From a phage, in sequence record PZ019085.1: a stretch of 64,000 nt of DNA; one strand, given 5' to 3'. The notes below the pieces were generated by a model. It was not told the DNA's origin. It saw only the letters and a list, made by a program, of their open reading frames with translations, and did no database searches. Positions 4,647 to 32,693 of the stretch are shown here, piece after piece; within the stretch, counting starts at the first letter, position 1; each line of letters opens with the position of its first letter. Position numbers and translations under genes: made by a program.

Positions 4647-5282
4647 ATGAAAACTACACCAATCACTATCGCTATTGACGCAATCGTAAAACAAGCTTCA
4701 TCTCTTGCCACTATGGCTAAAGTAATTAGTCAAAACCCTGCCCGATATAATGCTATTCTTGAAACTCTTCGTCGCCCTGGACTGAGTAATTATGAAAGCC
4801 GAGTAATTATTACAGGTGTTGGTAAGAATGCTAATATTGCAACTAAAGCTTCTGAGACATTTGCTTCATTAGGTATTCCTAGCATGTATTTGAACACTGG
4901 GCATTATTCTCATGGTGACGCAGGATTTATTGCACCTAATGATGTATTAGTTCACATCAGTCGTTCTGGTAAGACTGAAGAAATGATAGGTGTTGCTAAA
5001 CATCTTCGTATGATTCGTCCTCAGGTTAAACAGATTCTGTTACATTGTAACCCTGACATTCCACAAGAATACGAAGCTCTTTTTGATTATACGTTCTGTA
5101 CCGGTATCGCGGTAGAAGTTGACGAGAACTCTTTAGCTCCGACGATGTCTACTACATTGTTGTTAGCGCTTATCGATACGTTCGCTATCAACCTTTCATC
5201 TGAACGTGGATTTACCTCTAATGATTTCCTTAAGTTCCATCCAGGCGGTGCACTAGGTGCCATGTTACGAGGCGAGCAATGA
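4647..5282 (+). CDS. SIS-domain sugar-phosphate isomerase (arabinose-5-phosphate isomerase / KdsD-GutQ-like, single SIS domain, no CBS)
   Basis: 211 aa; motif VIITGVGKNANIATKASETFASLGIPSMYL...HGDAGFIAPNDVLVHISRSGKTEE typical of SIS isomerases; no T4 counterpart at this position. Confidence 0.7.
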   Translation: MKTTPITIAIDAIVKQASSLATMAKVISQNPARYNAILETLRRPGLSNYESRVIITGVGKNANIATKASETFASLGIPSMYLNTGHYSHGDAGFIAPNDVLVHISRSGKTEEMIGVAKHLRMIRPQVKQILLHCNPDIPQEYEALFDYTFCTGIAVEVDENSLAPTMSTTLLLALIDTFAINLSSERGFTSNDFLKFHPGGALGAMLRGEQ

Positions 5283-5422
5283 AAGCAATAACAATAGGAC
5301 TTTTACTATTGATGCTTGTCATGACTATCTATTGGAGCTTAACGGCTCCAGTAATGATTCCAACACTTGTAATTGGATGGATTATGATTGGACTACAAGC
5401 AAAGTATGAATGCTTTAACTAG
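5279..5422 (+). CDS. Small hydrophobic membrane peptide (47 aa)
   Basis: ATG overlaps the preceding stop (ATGA); MKAITIGLLLLMLVMTIYWSLTAPVMIPTLVIGWIMIGLQ; below the ORF-track length cutoff. Confidence 0.4.
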   Translation: MKAITIGLLLLMLVMTIYWSLTAPVMIPTLVIGWIMIGLQAKYECFN

Positions 5423-5435
5423 AATAGTGTACAAT
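5411..5435 (+). promoter_or_regulatory. MotA-box middle promoter (TGCTTTA, 12-bp spacer, TACAAT) upstream of the nucleotidyltransferase/kinase gene
   Basis: MotA box TGCTTTA at 5411-5417 and -10 TACAAT at 5430-5435; spacing fits T4 middle promoters. Confidence 0.45.
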
Positions 5436-5463
5436 ACTCCTACTTACCAATGAGGACCACAAC

Positions 5464-7149
5464 ATGAAAAAAGCTGTTATTCTTGGTGCTGGACTGGCAA
5501 CTCGTTTGTATCCAATAACGCATCATATTCCTAAGGTGCTTGTTAACTATAAACAAGACACTATTCTGAGCAATTTGTATACAATTTATTCTGACCTTGG
5601 CGCAGATGAAATTATTGTAGTAGTTCATTCAAAATTTGCTGAAACTGTTCGAGCTTATTGTGAGCAAGAAGGGTTCAATGTGACTATTCGTACAGTTGAT
5701 GAAGCATACGGATCTGCTTATGCTCTTGCTAAATTACACAAAGATTTAGACGGCCATAATGTAATTGTTAACTGGTGCGATATTATTCCTGATTTTGGTT
5801 CATGGTCTTGGAATGTTAACGCAATCTATGTTAAGGGTGACGAATGTCGGTATAATTTCGACGGTGAAAATATCACTAACGTAGGTTCAACAGGTGGTAA
5901 TGTTGTAGGAATTTATCAGTTCAAAGACTGGGAATTCTATATGGGTTCTACCGATGAGGAAATTCATGAATACTGCAAAGGACGTGATTTCGTAGAATTC
6001 CTTTACAGCGGCGCATTCAATAAATCAGAGCTTATGAATATAATTGATTTAGGTGATATGCCTAAACTTGAAAAAGCTCATGAAGTTCGTGAACTTAATC
6101 GTAGTTTTAATGCAGTTGAAATTGGTGAAGAAACTGTAACTAAATTCGCATTAACCGAACAGGGCCGAGCTCTTCAGAAAGATGAGATTTCATGGTATCT
6201 TAAAGTGAAATCAGATTCAGTTCCTCAGTTAGTTTCTGTTAATGAAAATAACTTTGAAATGGAACGCATTAAAGGTAAGCCGGCATTTGAATATATTAAA
6301 TCCAAATCAAGTCTTGCTCGTCCACAAATTGTTGATGCAATTTTAGATGCACTGAAATTCAGCACAGACACTTATTTTGTAAGTCCTGAAACTGTTCGTC
6401 GTGATTTCACTAAAGAATTCTATACGAAAGTTATTGATCGTTGTGAAAGTATTCAACCATTGATTGATTCATTTGGTAAAATCACACATGTGAACTACAC
6501 TAAGATTGGACGTCTGAAGCCAATGCTGAAACAAGCTTTAGAACACCTTATTCGTTATCATAACCGTTCTCAGGGACAGTACTCTGTTATTCATGGTGAC
6601 CCTAACTTCAGTAATACTATGATTACTGATAACGGCGAAGTCAAGTTTATCGACCCTCGTGGATATTTTGGTGAAACCAAGATTTACGGGCCAAAATTGT
6701 ATGACGAAGCTAAAGTGCTTTATGCTGTTTCAGGTTATGATGAATTCAATGCTAATCCGACCTGGGGACAGTTTACTATTGATGAAACAACTTGTAATGT
6801 GACTATTAACATCAATCCATTAATTTACAAATATGGAAAGATGAGTTCGTTTAACGAGTATCATCATTTGGCGGTGGCAATTATCTGGATTGCATTGGGT
6901 GGTTATTTCAAGAATAATCCACTTAAAGCGGTAGCCGCATATTATAAAGGTATGGAACTTCTGACTAAGCAATTACGTAACATGGGCCGTGTACTTCAGG
7001 ACGGCTCTATTAGTTATGACGTAGCAGAACCTGTAACGGCTACTCTGATTACAAAAAATCCTGGTAAATGGGTACTAACTGATAAAGAAACTGGTGTTTC
7101 TTATCGTCCAATCGGTGGCGATATCACTCATCAATGGGAACGAATCTAA
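5464..7149 (+). CDS. Bifunctional sugar-1-phosphate nucleotidyltransferase (N-terminal) / APH-choline-kinase-fold kinase (C-terminal)
   Basis: N-terminus MKKAVILGAGLATRLYPIT is the RmlA/LicC-type G-x-G-x-R-L signature; C-terminus has Brenner motif HGDPNFSN and IDPRG (APH/NahK/LicA-like); 561 aa. Confidence 0.75.
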   Translation: MKKAVILGAGLATRLYPITHHIPKVLVNYKQDTILSNLYTIYSDLGADEIIVVVHSKFAETVRAYCEQEGFNVTIRTVDEAYGSAYALAKLHKDLDGHNVIVNWCDIIPDFGSWSWNVNAIYVKGDECRYNFDGENITNVGSTGGNVVGIYQFKDWEFYMGSTDEEIHEYCKGRDFVEFLYSGAFNKSELMNIIDLGDMPKLEKAHEVRELNRSFNAVEIGEETVTKFALTEQGRALQKDEISWYLKVKSDSVPQLVSVNENNFEMERIKGKPAFEYIKSKSSLARPQIVDAILDALKFSTDTYFVSPETVRRDFTKEFYTKVIDRCESIQPLIDSFGKITHVNYTKIGRLKPMLKQALEHLIRYHNRSQGQYSVIHGDPNFSNTMITDNGEVKFIDPRGYFGETKIYGPKLYDEAKVLYAVSGYDEFNANPTWGQFTIDETTCNVTININPLIYKYGKMSSFNEYHHLAVAIIWIALGGYFKNNPLKAVAAYYKGMELLTKQLRNMGRVLQDGSISYDVAEPVTATLITKNPGKWVLTDKETGVSYRPIGGDITHQWERI

Positions 7150-7535
7150 TGCATCGTGTAGAAAACATGCTTAATCTTTGTTTTGATGTCGACGATTGTA
7201 TAACAGAGTGGAATAACAATCGTGATTACGTGAACTTCAAGCCAGACGTCGAAATGGTGTCTGCCATTAATGCCCTGTATGATGCAGGGCATACCATAAC
7301 GCTTTACACTGCTCGTGGTATGAAGTCAGTAGGTCCTGGTCGTATAGCAATTGACATTCTCCCAAGTCTGATTCAGAACTTGGCAAACATTGGCTTGAAG
7401 TACCATAATTTGCTAACACATAAACCAGTATATGATTGGATTATCGACGACAAAGCTATGCGTCCCGACGAATTCAAAGCTCTTATGAATAAAGGCGAAT
7501 TCGAAACATTTAAATCATATAAACCGAATCTATAA
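7149..7535 (+). CDS. Small HAD-superfamily phosphatase-like protein
   Basis: Motif I FDVDDCIT near the N-terminus, motif IV IIDDK; start taken at the ATG overlapping the upstream stop (TAATG); track ORF starts at 7134. Confidence 0.5.
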   Translation: MHRVENMLNLCFDVDDCITEWNNNRDYVNFKPDVEMVSAINALYDAGHTITLYTARGMKSVGPGRIAIDILPSLIQNLANIGLKYHNLLTHKPVYDWIIDDKAMRPDEFKALMNKGEFETFKSYKPNL

Positions 7536-7589: not shown

Positions 7590-8750
7590 ATGAATACTTT
7601 TAAAATCGGAACGAATTTTGATTTAGCTCTTCTTGATAAAATCGTAGAGCTCAATAAAACTTATCCTAATAGCTTGATAAACGAAGTATACGGCTCTACA
7701 AGAGAAATGGCTTTTGTAGCAGCCAGACCTGATTTTAGGCTTCCTGACGTTGACAAAAAGATGTTAGAAGATTACGTTAAACGTTGTAATGAATTAGGTA
7801 TTTGCTTTAACTATACACTCAACACGATAAATCCCGGTTCAAAAAGAGAACTAGTTGAGTGGAAGAAGAAAGCTATTCAGGATTATGTTCAGTATCTTTG
7901 GTCAATAGGCGTATGGCGTATTACTATCGCTAACCCTGTTGTTATGGAAATTGTTCGTGAAGTCAATAAAGACATTGAGATTGAAGTTTCAACAATTCTA
8001 CATGTCGATGCTGTAACTCAAATCAAATACTTACATGACCAATACAATATCAAAAAGGTCTGCTGTGGAATTCATAAGAACCGTTCAGTTTCTTTCCTGA
8101 AGCGTGCAGCAGAGTTTTGCAATAAGAACAATATAATATTTGAAGTTCTTGTAAATGAGTTCTGTTCTAATGCTGGTAAAGGGTATACAACACATTGTAG
8201 CTATCGTGACTCTTGCTATATTTTCCATAGTACTGATGTTACAGCTGATGATGCTAAATCCTTAAACGGGTATCCAATGCAACACTGCATTAAAGCTCGT
8301 GATACAGACCCATTTAACTGGTTGAGAACTCGTTTTGTTCGTCCTCAAGATTTGAAACTTTATAATGATATTGGTATCACTCAATTCAAAGTTTCAGGAC
8401 GTACAGGTAGCACAGACTACATTTTGAAAGTTCTTGAAGCATACGCTTCTGAAAAGTTTGAAGGTAATTTGTTAGAACTGTGGAAGCCTTTAGAGACTAT
8501 TTTCACTCTTGAAAACGAAACTGAGTTTTCACATACAGTAAATATTGAAACCTCTTTGTTAGATGGCTTTTTAGAAAAAAGGTGGTTCAGGCATCCAGAT
8601 TTCGATTGTGCTAATGAAATCTGTGGGACGACGTGTACATATTGTGAAAGATATTATAAACGTCAGTTATCTAAAAACGGGTTAGCAGAAAACTCTATAT
8701 CTATTATTGATATAACTAACTCTGATGACGCTTTGAGGTACCCAGAATGA
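7590..8750 (+). CDS. Cys-rich enzyme, possibly peptidase-U32-family / Fe-S TIM-barrel-like; function unknown
   Basis: 386 aa; segments GICFNYTLNTIN and EIEVSTILHV resemble U32-family strands as I remember them; C-terminal Cys cluster C-x4-C-x3-C-x2-C (CANEICGTTCTYC). Confidence 0.3.
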   Translation: MNTFKIGTNFDLALLDKIVELNKTYPNSLINEVYGSTREMAFVAARPDFRLPDVDKKMLEDYVKRCNELGICFNYTLNTINPGSKRELVEWKKKAIQDYVQYLWSIGVWRITIANPVVMEIVREVNKDIEIEVSTILHVDAVTQIKYLHDQYNIKKVCCGIHKNRSVSFLKRAAEFCNKNNIIFEVLVNEFCSNAGKGYTTHCSYRDSCYIFHSTDVTADDAKSLNGYPMQHCIKARDTDPFNWLRTRFVRPQDLKLYNDIGITQFKVSGRTGSTDYILKVLEAYASEKFEGNLLELWKPLETIFTLENETEFSHTVNIETSLLDGFLEKRWFRHPDFDCANEICGTTCTYCERYYKRQLSKNGLAENSISIIDITNSDDALRYPE

Positions 8751-8829
8751 TTTCTAGAAAAACTTTTAACCACCAACTTAATGAAGAGATTTTGACTATG
8801 AAACTGAACACTAACGAACAAATTCTTAA

Positions 8830-8850
8830 AAAGGCCCTTATGGGGGCCTG
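8830..8850 (+). other. GC-rich stem-loop (AGGCCC-loop-GGGCCT) in the 280-nt non-coding gap before gene 42
   Basis: Inverted repeat seen directly; no U-tract follows, so terminator function is uncertain. Confidence 0.3.
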
Positions 8851-9030
8851 TTTGAAACCAAAGCGGCTAAAGTGATTAAAGAACCTGTTCAATTGGAATA
8901 CTACGCTGATGCATTTCTTCATAGTGTTCTTGGAAGTATCGATGCTGAAGCTTTACGGTATATCAACACTGCCAAGAAATTCAAATAAGCTTTACGAATC
9001 GAGTATATAATAAATTGTATTGAGGTAAAC

Positions 9031-9747
9031 ATGGGAAAACATAACACAATGAAATATATCAAAGCCGCAGATTTTCAAACCGCATTTAAAGCAGTCAATC
9101 GTGAAATTTTAGAAAACCCGGAATTCGTAACTGATTCTCGTATTGGACGTTGTAATGAAATTGGGTCTATGACAGTAGTTGTTGACACTCCATCGTCATT
9201 CAAAATGACCGACCCACGTATTAACCGCATCTCTTATGAATATGCCGAAGACTTCTGGAAGTTTATGATTTCTGGTGGTACTGATGCAGAAGAAGCGTTT
9301 AAGGCATATCCTAATGTCGCTAAATTTATTTCTAAACCAAAATCGGATGCTTTGCCTGCAAACTTCAACACTTTCTATGGTCCTCGCATTGCGGCCCAAT
9401 TACCAACTCTTCTAAAAGAACTTAAAGAGAAACCTAACTCTCGAAGAGTTGTGTTCCAAATTCTAGAAAGTTCAGATCAGGCTTTGCTTGATTCGGACGA
9501 AACACTTGAATATCCATGTACTGACTCAGTGACTTATTATATTCGTGATGGTAAGCTTTATACCCACTGTCATATGCGTTCTCAGAACTGTGCTGTTGTT
9601 ATGCAGTTGGATTTTTATCTCCAAGGAAAATTACTTCATTATATCGCTAACGAATGCGGTGTAGAAGTAGGTGATTATACTCATACCATGGTAAGTGCCC
9701 ATGTGTTTGAACGTGATTTTGATTATGTTAAAGGATTCCTTGACTAA
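9031..9747 (+). CDS. 42: dCMP hydroxymethylase gp42 (thymidylate-synthase fold)
   Basis: 238 aa; NSRRVVFQIL and CTDSVTYYIRDGKLYTHCHMRSQN align with T4 gp42 DSRRGIMIYT and CTNTVQYLIRDKKINAVVNMRSND from memory. Confidence 0.85.
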   Translation: MGKHNTMKYIKAADFQTAFKAVNREILENPEFVTDSRIGRCNEIGSMTVVVDTPSSFKMTDPRINRISYEYAEDFWKFMISGGTDAEEAFKAYPNVAKFISKPKSDALPANFNTFYGPRIAAQLPTLLKELKEKPNSRRVVFQILESSDQALLDSDETLEYPCTDSVTYYIRDGKLYTHCHMRSQNCAVVMQLDFYLQGKLLHYIANECGVEVGDYTHTMVSAHVFERDFDYVKGFLD

Positions 9748-10646
9748 TGGCTATTTTCCGCGTACCTATCTTGAGTATGCGGTCTTATGAAACTGGTCAG
9801 TATGCTATCCTTAAGGATGGCAACTTCCAACTTCATTTGCACCGTGCTAATCCAGGCGATGTGATTACATATCCACGTAATGCATCTGATATTAAAGAAT
9901 GTGAACGTCTTTTCCCGGAATTTAAGTTTGTTCCATTATGGTATAAAGATAACGCGTATAACACTCGTAAATATTTCTGGTCTGAAAATGAATTTGTGGT
10001 TGATTCATTAATTGCTTATTATGATTGTGATTTTCTAATCACAGATATCACTGGATATGATGGCGCTTTTGACGTAGAATTCAATTTCAATATCACTGCA
10101 GACCCTAATAAACCACGTTTTTATATTGATGAATTCTTAAAAACCGACATGTTGTCTGTTAATCGTTCACTTCAAACTACTGTGTTGAATGAACGTCAAA
10201 AAGAAGTGCTGGTTAACGCAGGTGCAGATGGTAATAAGATTATCGTAACGCAGAAAGTTATACGTCCTTCCGTCATGCAGCGTCTTGTAGGTGATTTGGC
10301 TCCTATTCATCTAGATGGTATTTTTCATCCATTTCGAATTAGTGACCCATGCTATCGTTTTGAACAAGTTGTTGAATGCGCAATTCAATTAGGTCAACCG
10401 CTTTATATAACTGATCCAAATAATAGTTTCGACAGAAATAAGTATCCTGAAGAAGCGCTGATTCGAATTTTTAATCCAACTAAAACTGAGTACTATCAAA
10501 TTCTTAAAGGACGTCCGAAGATTCAATATTTCGAAAATCCTGAAGAAGTATTCCATCCAGGTCTTGGTGAGTTCATCTACTTTAATGCTTTAATTTCTTC
10601 ACCGTATAATATACCTAAATACGAAGATGTCGTAATCGAGGAATAA
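9747..10646 (+). CDS. Hypothetical protein occupying the T4 beta-glucosyltransferase slot (no recognisable beta-gt similarity)
   Basis: 299 aa; sits between 42 and uvsX where T4 has beta-gt; sequence does not resemble T4 beta-gt as I recall it. Confidence 0.5.
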   Translation: MAIFRVPILSMRSYETGQYAILKDGNFQLHLHRANPGDVITYPRNASDIKECERLFPEFKFVPLWYKDNAYNTRKYFWSENEFVVDSLIAYYDCDFLITDITGYDGAFDVEFNFNITADPNKPRFYIDEFLKTDMLSVNRSLQTTVLNERQKEVLVNAGADGNKIIVTQKVIRPSVMQRLVGDLAPIHLDGIFHPFRISDPCYRFEQVVECAIQLGQPLYITDPNNSFDRNKYPEEALIRIFNPTKTEYYQILKGRPKIQYFENPEEVFHPGLGEFIYFNALISSPYNIPKYEDVVIEE

Positions 10647-10647
10647 A

Positions 10648-11196
10648 ATGGCTAAAATTATTTTAGTAGACGGCCCGGATAATGCTGGTAAAACAACTTT
10701 CATTAATGACATAATGGAAATTAGTGAAAGATATGTAAAGATTGATTTCCCTAAACGAACAGTTGATGGACGTTTCGATGTTAAGTCTCGAAATGAAGTT
10801 GGCTGTTTCGAAACGATGTTGAATTATTTAGACCCTACTAAGATTTATCTGTTAGACCGTGGATATATTAGTAACTGGGTTTATGGACGTATTCGACAAG
10901 ATGTGGACTCGGTTCTTGACGTTTATGAACAGGATTATGTTCGTCTTTGCCAAAACCATGATGTGTTCACAATTATTTTAACACGTAACGAAATGACTGA
11001 AAGTTTTGAAGACGACCTTATTACTTTGTCTTCATTCGGTTTTAATACAGTCATTTCATATTTTGAAGAGTTTGCAATTCATAACAAAATCCAAACGTAT
11101 CAATTACTTAATCATGATGGTGCTAACAAAGTTATAGGATTTAATGCAAGCGAACGTAATTATTTGATTACAGAAATCATTAAATGGGCTCGTTAA
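10648..11196 (+). CDS. P-loop nucleoside/nucleotide kinase-like protein
   Basis: 182 aa; Walker A GPDNAGKTT at the N-terminus and an LDRG motif reminiscent of dNK/TMPK-type kinases. Confidence 0.5.
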   Translation: MAKIILVDGPDNAGKTTFINDIMEISERYVKIDFPKRTVDGRFDVKSRNEVGCFETMLNYLDPTKIYLLDRGYISNWVYGRIRQDVDSVLDVYEQDYVRLCQNHDVFTIILTRNEMTESFEDDLITLSSFGFNTVISYFEEFAIHNKIQTYQLLNHDGANKVIGFNASERNYLITEIIKWAR

Positions 11197-11214
11197 GAGC
11201 CATTTAAAGTTTTA

Positions 11215-11241
11215 AATGCTGTATAACCCTTAGTATATAAT
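11215..11241 (+). promoter_or_regulatory. MotA-box middle promoter upstream of uvsX (TGCTGTA, 12 bp, TATAAT)
   Basis: MotA-like box at 11217-11223 and -10 TATAAT at 11236-11241. Confidence 0.4.
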
Positions 11242-11294
11242 CATCTTATCCTTTAAACATGAGTAAAATATAATGATGCCTATGGAAAAATACA

Positions 11295-12467
11295 ATGTCT
11301 GATTTAAAATCTCGTCTGATTAAAGCTTCTACTTCTAAAATGACTGCAGACTTGACTAAGTCTAAGCTGTTTAATAATCGTGATGAAGTCCCTACTCGTA
11401 TTCCGATGTTGAATATTGCATTAGGTGGTGCACTGAATGCAGGGTTGCAATCAGGCTTAACTATTTTTGCTGCTCCTTCTAAACACTTTAAAACGTTGTT
11501 TGGACTAACTATGGTTGCAGCATATATGAAGAAATATAAAGATGCAATTTGTTTGTTCTATGATTCAGAATTTGGTGCTTCAGAATCTTATTTTCGTTCA
11601 ATGGGTGTTGATTTAGACCGTGTAGTTCATACTCCGATTCAATCTGTCGAACAACTTAAAGTTGATATGACTAATCAGCTTGACGCGATTGAACGCGGTG
11701 ATAAAGTTATTATCTTTATCGATTCAATCGGTAATACTGCATCTAAGAAAGAAACCGAAGATGCGTTGAACGAGAAAGTTGTAGGTGATATGTCTCGTGC
11801 TAAGGCACTTAAATCTCTTTTCCGTATTGTGACCCCGTATCTGACTATTAAAGATATCCCGTGTGTTGCAATCAACCATACAGCAATGGAAATCGGCGGA
11901 CTATATCCTAAAGAGATTATGGGTGGTGGTACAGGTATTCTTTACTCTGCTAACACCGTATTCTTTATCTCTAAACGTCAGGTTAAAGAAGGTACAGAAT
12001 TAACCGGTTATGACTTCACGTTGAAAGCAGAAAAATCTCGTACAGTTAAAGAGAAATCTACTTTCCCGATCACGGTTAATTTTGATGGCGGTATTGACCC
12101 ATTCAGTGGCTTGTTAGAAATGGCAACTGAAATCGGTTTTGTGGTTAAGCCTAAAGCTGGTTGGTATGCTCGTGAATTCCTTGACGAAGAAACAGGTGAA
12201 ATGATTCGTGAAGAAAAATCATGGCGTGCTAAAGCTACTGATTGTGTAGAATTCTGGGGACCATTGTTTAAACACAAACCTTTCCGAGATGCAATTGAAA
12301 CTAAATATAAACTAGGTGCTATCTCTTCTATTAAAGAAGTTGATGACGCTGTTAATGACCTTATTAATTGCAAAGCAACAACTAAAGTTCCGGTTAAAAC
12401 TTCTGATGCTCCATCCGCAGCAGATATAGAAAACGACCTTGACGAAATGGAAGATTTCGATGAATAA
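11295..12467 (+). CDS. uvsX: Recombinase UvsX (RecA/Rad51 family)
   Basis: 390 aa; colinear with T4 UvsX (MSDLKSRLIKASTSK..., acidic C-terminus). Confidence 0.95.
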   Translation: MSDLKSRLIKASTSKMTADLTKSKLFNNRDEVPTRIPMLNIALGGALNAGLQSGLTIFAAPSKHFKTLFGLTMVAAYMKKYKDAICLFYDSEFGASESYFRSMGVDLDRVVHTPIQSVEQLKVDMTNQLDAIERGDKVIIFIDSIGNTASKKETEDALNEKVVGDMSRAKALKSLFRIVTPYLTIKDIPCVAINHTAMEIGGLYPKEIMGGGTGILYSANTVFFISKRQVKEGTELTGYDFTLKAEKSRTVKEKSTFPITVNFDGGIDPFSGLLEMATEIGFVVKPKAGWYAREFLDEETGEMIREEKSWRAKATDCVEFWGPLFKHKPFRDAIETKYKLGAISSIKEVDDAVNDLINCKATTKVPVKTSDAPSAADIENDLDEMEDFDE

Positions 12468-31592: not shown

Positions 31593-32693
31593 ATGAAAGT
31601 TATGTTTATCCCATCTCGTGCAGTCCCATTTAATCCTGACCGTGTACAAGGTGGTCTTGAGGCAGTACATTTAAATGTGTTGAAATATCTTGTGTCCATC
31701 GGTGCTGATATTGATTATATCGGCTTTGATAATGACACGTTTGGTGACTGGAAAGTTACACACCATCCTGTTGGTCATCTGACTAAATTCAGTCTAGGTA
31801 TGAGTTATACTATGGCCCGTAAGATTGTTGAACTAGCCGGCATCCATGAATACGATTTTGTTGTTACTATGGAACCGACTAAACTAACCGTTCAGGCAAT
31901 TAAAGACGCAGGTCTCTCTAAAGTTCATAAGAATTTTATGGCTACGCCGTTTGAACCGGTGTCTCGTGGTATTGTTCAAATTTGGGATCAGACTATCCAG
32001 ATTCACAAGAACGGTGGGAAGAGCTATGCTCCTACTAAAGCATTCCGTGAATTTGAACGTAAATATTGTCATATGACTTCAGCTCTTACTGACAAAATTG
32101 ATTATGACTACTGGCGTGAAAATCCATTATTTGAACCTGATGACTACCCAGTTATTTGTTTGAATGAAAAACCTGAAGTTCTTCCGGCAACTGATTTGAT
32201 TATTAGTGCTCAACGTTATGACACTAAGATGCGTCGCACTGATGTTGCTCTTGAAGCAATTAAAGCACTAGGCGAAAATGGTATTGGTTATTGTCCAAGC
32301 AAATGGGCACCACCAGCTAAATATCCTGTTATTATTGATGCTCCACATAGTGAAATCATGGAACGTCTTAAAACAGCTAAAGCACTTATTAATACGTGTC
32401 CTGACACAGGTACGGTAGAGAATAGTTCTATTGAAGCCATCTCTAAAGGTGTCCCTGTAATCCAGTTAGTTTTTAAGGATTATCCTCATGCGACATTCGA
32501 ATACGACCCAGATACTGTGCGTGTAGAAATTGATTCCTCTACTCCTAAGAAAGAAGTAGTTGCGCTTTACACAAAAGCTGTATTAGAATTCACTGACACA
32601 TACGAAGCTCGAGTTAAACGTGCTGAAGCAGTATGGAAGAAGTATAATCGAGATGCAGTTGTTGCGATGTGGGATAAAATCTTCACAGCGTAA
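31593..32693 (+). CDS. GT-B-fold glycosyltransferase (GT4-like), candidate DNA hmC glycosyl (arabinosyl) transferase
   Basis: 366 aa; C-terminal TGTVENSSIEAISKGVPVI resembles the GT-B donor-binding E-x7-E region; sits between 39 and rIIA. Confidence 0.6.
   Translation: MKVMFIPSRAVPFNPDRVQGGLEAVHLNVLKYLVSIGADIDYIGFDNDTFGDWKVTHHPVGHLTKFSLGMSYTMARKIVELAGIHEYDFVVTMEPTKLTVQAIKDAGLSKVHKNFMATPFEPVSRGIVQIWDQTIQIHKNGGKSYAPTKAFREFERKYCHMTSALTDKIDYDYWRENPLFEPDDYPVICLNEKPEVLPATDLIISAQRYDTKMRRTDVALEAIKALGENGIGYCPSKWAPPAKYPVIIDAPHSEIMERLKTAKALINTCPDTGTVENSSIEAISKGVPVIQLVFKDYPHATFEYDPDTVRVEIDSSTPKKEVVALYTKAVLEFTDTYEARVKRAEAVWKKYNRDAVVAMWDKIFTA

Follow-up and report, generated by a model that had tools for sequence, protein, structure and literature searches.

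The DNA of phage RB69 was at first reported to carry arabinosyl-5-hydroxymethylcytosine (PMC6024577), an assignment later revised: the sugar is joined straight to C5 of the ring through the ether oxygen of 5-hydroxycytosine (5hoC). The RB69 base is β-D-Araf-(1-3)-α-D-Araf-5-hydroxy-dC (Araf, arabinofuranose; dC, deoxycytidine), and mono- and di-arabinosyl 5-hydroxycytosine are present in the DNA of RB69, HY126, Bas46/47, and NP. RB69 gp48 makes 5-hydroxy-dCMP (5hodCMP) from deoxycytidine monophosphate (dCMP) in vivo, with 18O2 labeling and a bound flavin reported, and its HY126 homolog has been crystallized; the same study names RB69 gp46:47 "arabinosyltransferase 1" and gp45 "nucleotide kinase," both from structure prediction alone, and gives gp79 and gp78 as the DLP3 homologs (Lee et al., NAR 2026, PMC13326640). 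Here we analyze the corresponding genes in a 64,000-nucleotide stretch of phage DNA (record PZ019085.1; "the window"), which encode a 299-residue protein, GT1 (9747–10646, + strand), and a 182-residue P-loop kinase, KIN (10648–11196, + strand).

By its sequence, the window belongs to a Mosigvirus, an RB69-like phage: the region shares 98–99% DNA identity with many Mosigvirus genomes, including JS09, Shf125875, Bas46, Bas47, and the LF82 series. GT1, KIN, and the adjoining ThyA homolog are best explained as the conserved core of the pathway by which RB69-like phages hypermodify their DNA with arabinosyl-5-hydroxycytosine; in it, with high probability, GT1 is the first arabinosyltransferase on 5-hydroxycytosine and KIN the kinase for modified dCMP. 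The locus belongs to a recently described strategy by which phages shield cytosine from restriction enzymes, CRISPR-Cas, and DNA glycosylases. Publications on the system span 2018 to 2026, and the finding as stated here adds nothing beyond the 2025–2026 literature; what holds real interest is which acceptor GT1 uses and which substrate KIN takes. A first-pass annotation had guessed from gene position that a second sugar transferase and/or a kinase for modified nucleotides stands next to a hydroxymethylase gene. That guess is correct as to kind, but its chemistry and rank are wrong. A reading based on 5-hydroxymethylcytosine was rejected, the sugar being arabinofuranose on 5-hydroxycytosine.

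Gene order and linkage

Both open reading frames (ORFs) were confirmed at these coordinates and are real genes rather than chance ORFs, with matches to PHROG 3891 (GT1, E 1e-155) and PHROG 761 (KIN, E 8e-45). The gene order in the window is ThyA homolog (9031–9747), GT1, KIN, uvsX (11295–12467). The stop codon of the ThyA homolog overlaps the GT1 start with one base in common (TAATG), and one base lies between the GT1 stop and the ATG of KIN, which is preceded by a Shine-Dalgarno-like GAGGA. In the annotated T4 record the genes run 42, b-gt, segA, uvsX, and GT1 occupies the same slot, between the ThyA homolog and uvsX; coordinates, motifs, and T4 gene order thus bear out the earlier observation that the b-gt slot holds a 299-residue protein and a P-loop kinase. 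A promoter and terminator scan of 8700–11400 returned nothing exceeding shuffled expectation. A 5-bp GC-rich hairpin (11187–11201; GGCTC-GTTAA-GAGCC) extends across the KIN stop codon, is followed by an A/T-rich stretch, and precedes the 98-bp gap to uvsX; the terminator scan made no call there.

GT1 is identical to RB69 gp47 joined to gp46 at 293 of 299 residues, and KIN to RB69 gp45 at 178 of 182. The RB69 reference (NC_004928) splits the GT1 gene into ORF046c and ORF047c, whereas the window ORF is intact. The single indel across 2.2 kb, at window position 10290, is a surplus T in the RB69 record, and this one-nucleotide error accounts for the split, which Lee et al. (NAR 2026, PMC13326640) likewise call a sequencing error. 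Apart from the split, nothing substantive distinguishes the window proteins from RB69 gp46:47 and gp45 or from DLP3 gp79 and gp78.

The 238-residue ThyA homolog (9031–9747, +) is identical to RB69 gp48 at 237 of 238 positions and matches the phage HY126 crystal structures PDB 9iqc, 9ir2, and 9iqu (E 1.6e-161). Its signature residues Glu160, Cys163, Asn186, and Asp194 correspond to E. coli L143E, C146, D169N, and N177D, and D169N has been proposed as the diagnostic residue of 5hodCMP synthases (Lee et al., PMC13326640). T4 gp42, included in the alignment as a control, retains Asp at position 169 and shares only 24% identity with the window protein. The hydroxylase signature and the identity to gp48 therefore make the neighbor of GT1 a dCMP 5-hydroxylase (5hodCMP synthase), not the hydroxymethylase for which it had been taken.

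A scan of viral contigs with the GT1 family alignment returned 58 loci. Linkage was counted over 44 loci, from roughly a dozen lineages, in which the GT1 homolog is at least 33% identical and the flank is untruncated; in all 44, the neighboring ThyA homolog has the D169N hydroxylase signature and KIN is present. KIN usually lies directly 3′ of GT1, with the ORFs overlapping or abutting, and the overlapping layout is also seen in divergent contigs (38% identity) where sugar-activation genes were not detected in the 6-kb flanks. In the Klebsiella- and Dhakavirus-type loci KIN lies upstream, after the HAD phosphatase gene, moved within the cluster and retained. The relocated kinase of these loci (Klebsiella, Marfa-like; Dhakavirus, JS98-like; and relatives: L005–L007, L011–L015, L020, L025, and L026, for example L005 3371–3910) is 37–42% identical to that of the window.

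Searches of 50,697 phage genomes with tblastn found GT1 in 349 records and KIN in 344. The two counts are equal within each of several genera (Escherichia 177 each, Acinetobacter 57, Shigella 15, Enterobacter 9, Proteus 7, Yersinia 6), and KIN at E ≤ 1e-5 is confined to phage groups with GT1. The near-identical genus counts thus place KIN in the modification module rather than among free-standing housekeeping genes, in keeping with the earlier proposal of a kinase tied to modification, and the distribution argues for a modification-specific substrate over dTMP.

Fold and rank of GT1

Curated sequence libraries are uninformative for GT1. It matches no Pfam family at E ≤ 0.1, including the glycosyltransferase models Glycos_transf_1 and Glyco_trans_4, has no meaningful match in NCBIfam, and finds no PDB sequence, either as a single sequence or as a 37-sequence profile; PHROG 3891, which it does match, carries no function label. 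As the first-pass annotation had noted, it has no resemblance to T4 β-glucosyltransferase (β-GT), whether by BLASTP (E 3.6) or by hhalign profile comparison (probability 0.1%). The GT1 family profile also gave no hhalign match to T4 α-glucosyltransferase (α-GT) or to GT2, a further glycosyltransferase of the window, and the phage DNA transferases are recognizably related at fold level alone. A large protein database contains 138 GT1 homologs at E ≤ 0.001, with identities down to 36% among the 120 listed. Strongly conserved motifs are SMRS, near the N-terminus, KDGN, FPFRxSD, TDPN, and HPG; in the family alignment, Arg197, Lys246, and His270-Pro-Gly are invariant and residue 275 is mostly Glu or Asp, and some of these may correspond to the C-terminal-domain R/K pair and EX7E-like Glu with which GT-B enzymes bind the nucleotide-sugar.

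AlphaFold2, run on the GT1 alignment, gives a model of alternating strands and helices in two halves (predicted local distance difference test score 94.7, predicted template-modeling score 0.89). The halves form two facing Rossmann-like domains, the arrangement that defines the GT-B fold. The closest structural neighbors are sucrose-phosphate synthase, BshA, and MshA, followed by PglA, HepE, PimA, and many other GT-B enzymes; T4 β-GT is absent from the top 60. In the Foldseek ranking MshA (3c4q) comes first, and UDP-GlcNAc 2-epimerases, which have the same fold, are retrieved as well. The same structural neighbors are listed for RB69 gp46:47 by Lee et al. (PMC13326640). From the predicted structure and these fold searches, which carry out the check proposed in the first pass, GT1 has the GT-B fold of a glycosyltransferase, GT4-like.

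GT1 would be a minimal member of this group. It is 8–12% identical to retaining GT4-type GT-B enzymes (sucrose-phosphate synthase 6kih, BshA 6n1x, MshA 3c4q, PimA 2gej), some 60–100 residues shorter, and differs from them in the absence of a Pfam glycosyltransferase match and in its acceptor, predicted to be a nucleobase. It also differs from the T4 glucosyltransferases, β-GT and α-GT (351 and 400 residues), which are known to act on DNA, as GT1 may do. The T4 acceptor is 5-hydroxymethylcytosine, whereas the predicted acceptor of GT1 is 5-hydroxycytosine, with an ether on the ring, and the predicted sugar arabinofuranose.

The first-pass annotation had proposed the 299-residue protein as a second transferase, and here the transferase stands but the rank does not. 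The proposed second, β-arabinosyltransferase is GT2, a 366-residue GT4-like glycosyltransferase encoded at 31593–32693 (+), 21 kb from GT1, between the topoisomerase and rIIA genes. GT2 corresponds to RB69 gp3 (97.8% identity to ORF003c) and is near-identical in sequence to PDB 9iqz and 9ir0 (with UDP), crystal structures deposited as "phage HY126 glycosyltransferase" (E 1.8e-250); it has no Pfam or NCBIfam match. Its homolog is the second transferase proposed by Lee et al. (PMC13326640). In the same 50,697 genomes GT2 occurs in 212 records, against 349 for GT1: Escherichia and Shigella phages have one copy, Acinetobacter phages have it in two places per record, and it was not found in the GT1- and KIN-bearing phages of Klebsiella, Serratia, Enterobacter, Proteus, Yersinia, and Shewanella. 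Reports give one arabinose per base for LC53 and Thanatos, two for RB69, Bas46/47, and NP, and three for DLP3, so that GT2 copy number (0, 1, 2) tracks arabinose number (1, 2, 3) across phages. The di-arabinosyl 5-hydroxycytosine reported for RB69-type DNA agrees with the multi-sugar modification suggested in the first pass. GT1 is the sole GT-fold gene common to all these phages and would, by elimination, install the base-proximal sugar. That sugar is α-linked (Lee et al., PMC13326640), which fits the retaining GT4-type neighbors of GT1. GT1 (9747–10646, RB69 gp47 plus gp46) is thus most likely the first, base-proximal, and universal transferase, a putative α-arabinofuranosyltransferase on 5-hydroxycytosine.

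Substrate of KIN and order of steps

KIN (10648–11196) has the motifs GPDNAGKTT (residues 9–17) and LDR (69–71), and PHROG 761 and many records label its homologs "thymidylate kinase." It has the thymidylate-kinase fold and the core motifs of nucleoside monophosphate kinases (P-loop Asp, FPxR, DR), and its GPDNAGKTT...FPKR aligns with GVDRAGKST...FPER of human TMPK at a profile probability of 93.7%. Fold and label both speak for the possibility that KIN is an ordinary dTMP kinase with no role in the modification of dCMP. Against this, KIN scores 16.1 bits with TIGR00041, for which the cut-off is 83.25, does not match the Pfam thymidylate-kinase model (PF02223) at E ≤ 0.1, where a weak match to AAA_14 is the only one, and, unlike thymidylate kinases (vaccinia 2v54, T. 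thermophilus 5x7j, human TMPK), is confined to 5-hydroxycytosine modification clusters. It has DRG where thymidylate kinases have DR[YHF], and its lid region contains an acidic DDLI segment that is invariant; the P-loop Asp, FPK, Asp70-Arg71, and Arg113 are also invariant in the family. In an alignment made by eye with the same human sequence, invariant Leu58 would fall where thymidylate kinases have the Arg that binds thymine O4.

The P-loop Asp and the FPxR Arg of thymidylate kinases are in contact with the mononucleotide at its deoxyribose 3′-OH and 5′-phosphate, and their presence in KIN points to a deoxynucleoside monophosphate (dNMP) substrate. P-loop kinases that phosphorylate a base in DNA do exist in other hypermodification clusters (5-hydroxymethyluracil DNA kinase, 5-HMUDK), and this precedent is the argument for a kinase acting on DNA. 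A role as a DNA-base kinase was rejected, given that the mature modification carries no phosphate and that KIN has mononucleotide-binding motifs, and so was a role as a sugar kinase, the upstream bifunctional enzyme already supplying an arabinose-5-phosphate (Ara5P) 1-kinase. We therefore regard an ordinary dTMP, DNA, or sugar kinase as very unlikely, and KIN as a divergent thymidylate-kinase-fold dNMP kinase, presumably for modified dCMP. In this it resembles T4 gp1 and RB69 gp159 as a phage kinase for modified dCMP, a role shown for gp159 and predicted for KIN; KIN has nothing in common with T4 gp1 beyond the P-loop.

Several observations weigh against the assignment of GT1 and KIN as first arabinosyltransferase and modified-dCMP kinase. 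RB69 gp159, a T4 gp1-type dNMP kinase and the one that was assayed rather than gp45, acts on 5hodCMP (Lee et al., PMC13326640), and another kinase for that step would seem redundant. GT1 is acidic (pI 5.05, net charge −11), where T4 β-GT has a pI of 9.05; this is a weak argument because T4 α-GT is also mildly acidic. As a proxy for DNA binding, pI and net charge were set aside as non-discriminating, the basic T4 β-GT and the acidic T4 α-GT both acting on DNA. Purified DLP3 transferases including gp79, tested singly with UDP-Araf or UDP-arabinopyranose (UDP-Arap), gave no arabinosylation of 5hoC-DNA (PMC13326640), and the literature surveyed contains no demonstration of transferase activity for the GT1 family. 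Finally, TH1_063 of the Shewanella phage Thanatos, a homolog 47.5% identical to GT1, is reported to form UDP-xylose from UTP and xylose-1-phosphate in vitro; no 5-hydroxycytosine acceptor was tried in that study.

The last result raises the alternative that GT1 is not a transferase but forms or modifies sugar nucleotides, as a UDP-pentose pyrophosphorylase or an enzyme resembling UDP-sugar 2-epimerases, the latter being suggested by the many UDP-GlcNAc 2-epimerases, with their GT-B-like fold, among the Foldseek matches. Enzymes of the GT-B fold are not known to carry out pyrophosphorylase chemistry. The cluster already has a dedicated nucleotidyltransferase, whose HY126 orthologue makes UDP-arabinose according to the published summary of that work, and the UDP-xylose result is hard to reconcile with the fold and with this separate enzyme. 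On such a reading Thanatos and Serratia-type phages would be without a transferase, yet their DNA is arabinosylated. The protein in the Thanatos assay was a His-tagged preparation expressed in E. coli, in which carry-over of a host enzyme is, we suggest, possible. A sugar-nucleotide enzyme is thus most improbable, and transfer of the first arabinose remains the preferred function of GT1.

The proposed pathway would start with hydroxylation of dCMP at C5 by the 238-residue ThyA homolog, as shown for the 99.6%-identical RB69 gp48. KIN would then phosphorylate the modified dCMP to the diphosphate, and host NDP kinase and phage polymerase would insert 5-hydroxy-dC (5hodC) into DNA. GT1 would place the first α-D-arabinofuranose on the 5-OH of 5-hydroxycytosine, with UDP-arabinofuranose supplied by the genes at 4647–7535 as the donor, and GT2 would add the second, β-linked arabinose, as proposed by Lee et al. 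(PMC13326640). The T4-like order assumed here, with GT1 acting on DNA after replication, has in our view about an even chance of being right. It is favored because of precedent, the shared T4 slot, the fact that the third arabinose is added on DNA, and the sufficiency of gp48 with gp159. To our knowledge, all characterized DNA glycosylation (T-even phages, base J) takes place after replication. The third arabinose alone has been reconstituted, on DNA, and incorporation of 5hodC into DNA was shown for gp48 co-expressed with gp159, not with a gp45-type kinase (Lee et al., PMC13326640), so 5hodCTP is made and can be polymerized.

A possible though rather doubtful alternative is that glycosylation precedes replication, with GT1 arabinosylating 5hodCMP, KIN phosphorylating ara-5hodCMP, and the polymerase inserting the glycosylated dCTP. 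The gp1-type kinase would be unable to handle the bulky ara-5hodCMP, and the second arabinose alone would be added on DNA. Speaking for this order is the strict coupling of KIN to GT1 (44 of 44 loci; 344 versus 349 genomes) despite a gp1-type kinase active on 5hodCMP, together with the retention of KIN even in loci where its place in the cluster has changed. Sucrose-phosphate synthase, BshA, and MshA, the best structural neighbors of GT1, use small anionic acceptors. E. coli Nth, Nei, and Fpg act on free 5-hydroxycytosine in DNA, which is also mutagenic, so a phage would gain by keeping the bare base from ever being exposed. Thymidylate-kinase pockets, on the other hand, are usually tight around C5, and no ara-nucleotide is reported in the literature surveyed. 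Family-B polymerases are described in the literature as tolerating C5-glycosylated dNTPs in vitro, and certain contigs outside the T4-like group hold the genes in a nucleotide-metabolism operon of MazG-like pyrophosphatase, kinase, GT1-like protein, and U32 protein (see below). Lee et al. (PMC13326640) explicitly leave it undecided whether the first arabinose is placed on the mononucleotide or on DNA. If true, glycosylation before replication would be the first natural case of its kind and would overturn the T4 paradigm, with natural enzymes making and polymerizing glycosylated dNTPs. It would also explain the second dNMP kinase, the absence of bare 5-hydroxycytosine from virion DNA, and the inactivity of the GT1 homolog on 5hoC-DNA in vitro (PMC13326640).

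Sugar supply, the U32 protein, and annotation

The genes for donor supply lie upstream of the ThyA homolog, all on the + strand. The SIS-domain protein at 4647–5282 (RB69 gp55; Pfam SIS, E 8e-10) is an arabinose-5-phosphate isomerase, a label carried by its homologs in the RB69 and HY126 records; in the literature this enzyme takes the opening step of UDP-arabinofuranose supply. It is followed at 5464–7149 by an AfhE-like bifunctional nucleotidyltransferase and kinase (RB69 gp53 plus gp52) with a match to Pfam NTP_transferase, weak kinase-family matches, and PHROG 4098. By analogy with HY126 AfhE, for which Ara5P 1-kinase and UDP-arabinose pyrophosphorylase activities are reported in the summary given by Lee et al. 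(PMC13326640), its product would act as both. The gene for this 561-residue protein, whole in the window, is likewise split in RB69 (ORF052c/053c). An AfhF-like HAD-type phosphatase, whose part in the pathway is described in the literature, is encoded at 7134–7535 (RB69 gp51; PHROG 1238). A literature search for the Afh gene names gave nothing relevant, and the HY126 GenBank record is without such names.

Between the phosphatase gene and the ThyA homolog, the gene at 7590–8750 (+) encodes a 386-residue U32-family Fe-S protein (RB69 gp50; Pfam Peptidase_U32, 42 bits against a cut-off of 22.4). Ten cysteines are invariant among the phage homologs, those of a C-terminal CX4CX3CX2C among them. Table 1 of Lee et al. 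(PMC13326640) labels the gene product just "sugar or heterocycle reductase." U32 proteins (RlhA, TrhP, UbiU/V) are implicated in O2-independent, prephenate-dependent hydroxylation, their targets being C5 of cytidine or uridine in RNA (cytidine in rRNA) and ubiquinone precursors. A literature search found no link between U32 proteins and the arabinosyl-hydroxycytosine modification.

Three non-T4-like contigs, which encode a PolIII-alpha-type polymerase, have an operon of MazG-like pyrophosphatase, P-loop kinase, GT1-like protein, and U32 protein (L049 5466–8051, L051 4301–6865, L055 5439–7973). Their GT1-like proteins are 24–28% identical to GT1 and keep the SMRS motif, and the small kinase weakly matches the KIN family. 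No ThyA homolog was found within 6 kb of the operon, which is consistent with replacement of the ThyA-type hydroxylase by the U32 protein in these contigs. The ThyA-type hydroxylase needs O2, so an anaerobic path to 5-hydroxycytosine could run through the U32 protein at 7590–8750.

Phage-therapy collections commonly contain Mosigviruses, and correct annotation of the cluster genes therefore matters. The proper names are dCMP 5-hydroxylase, arabinosyltransferase 1, and modified-dNMP kinase, in place of thymidylate synthase, hypothetical protein, and thymidylate kinase. Many GenBank relatives still label genes of the cluster "hypothetical protein," "thymidylate synthase," or "dCMP hydroxymethylase."

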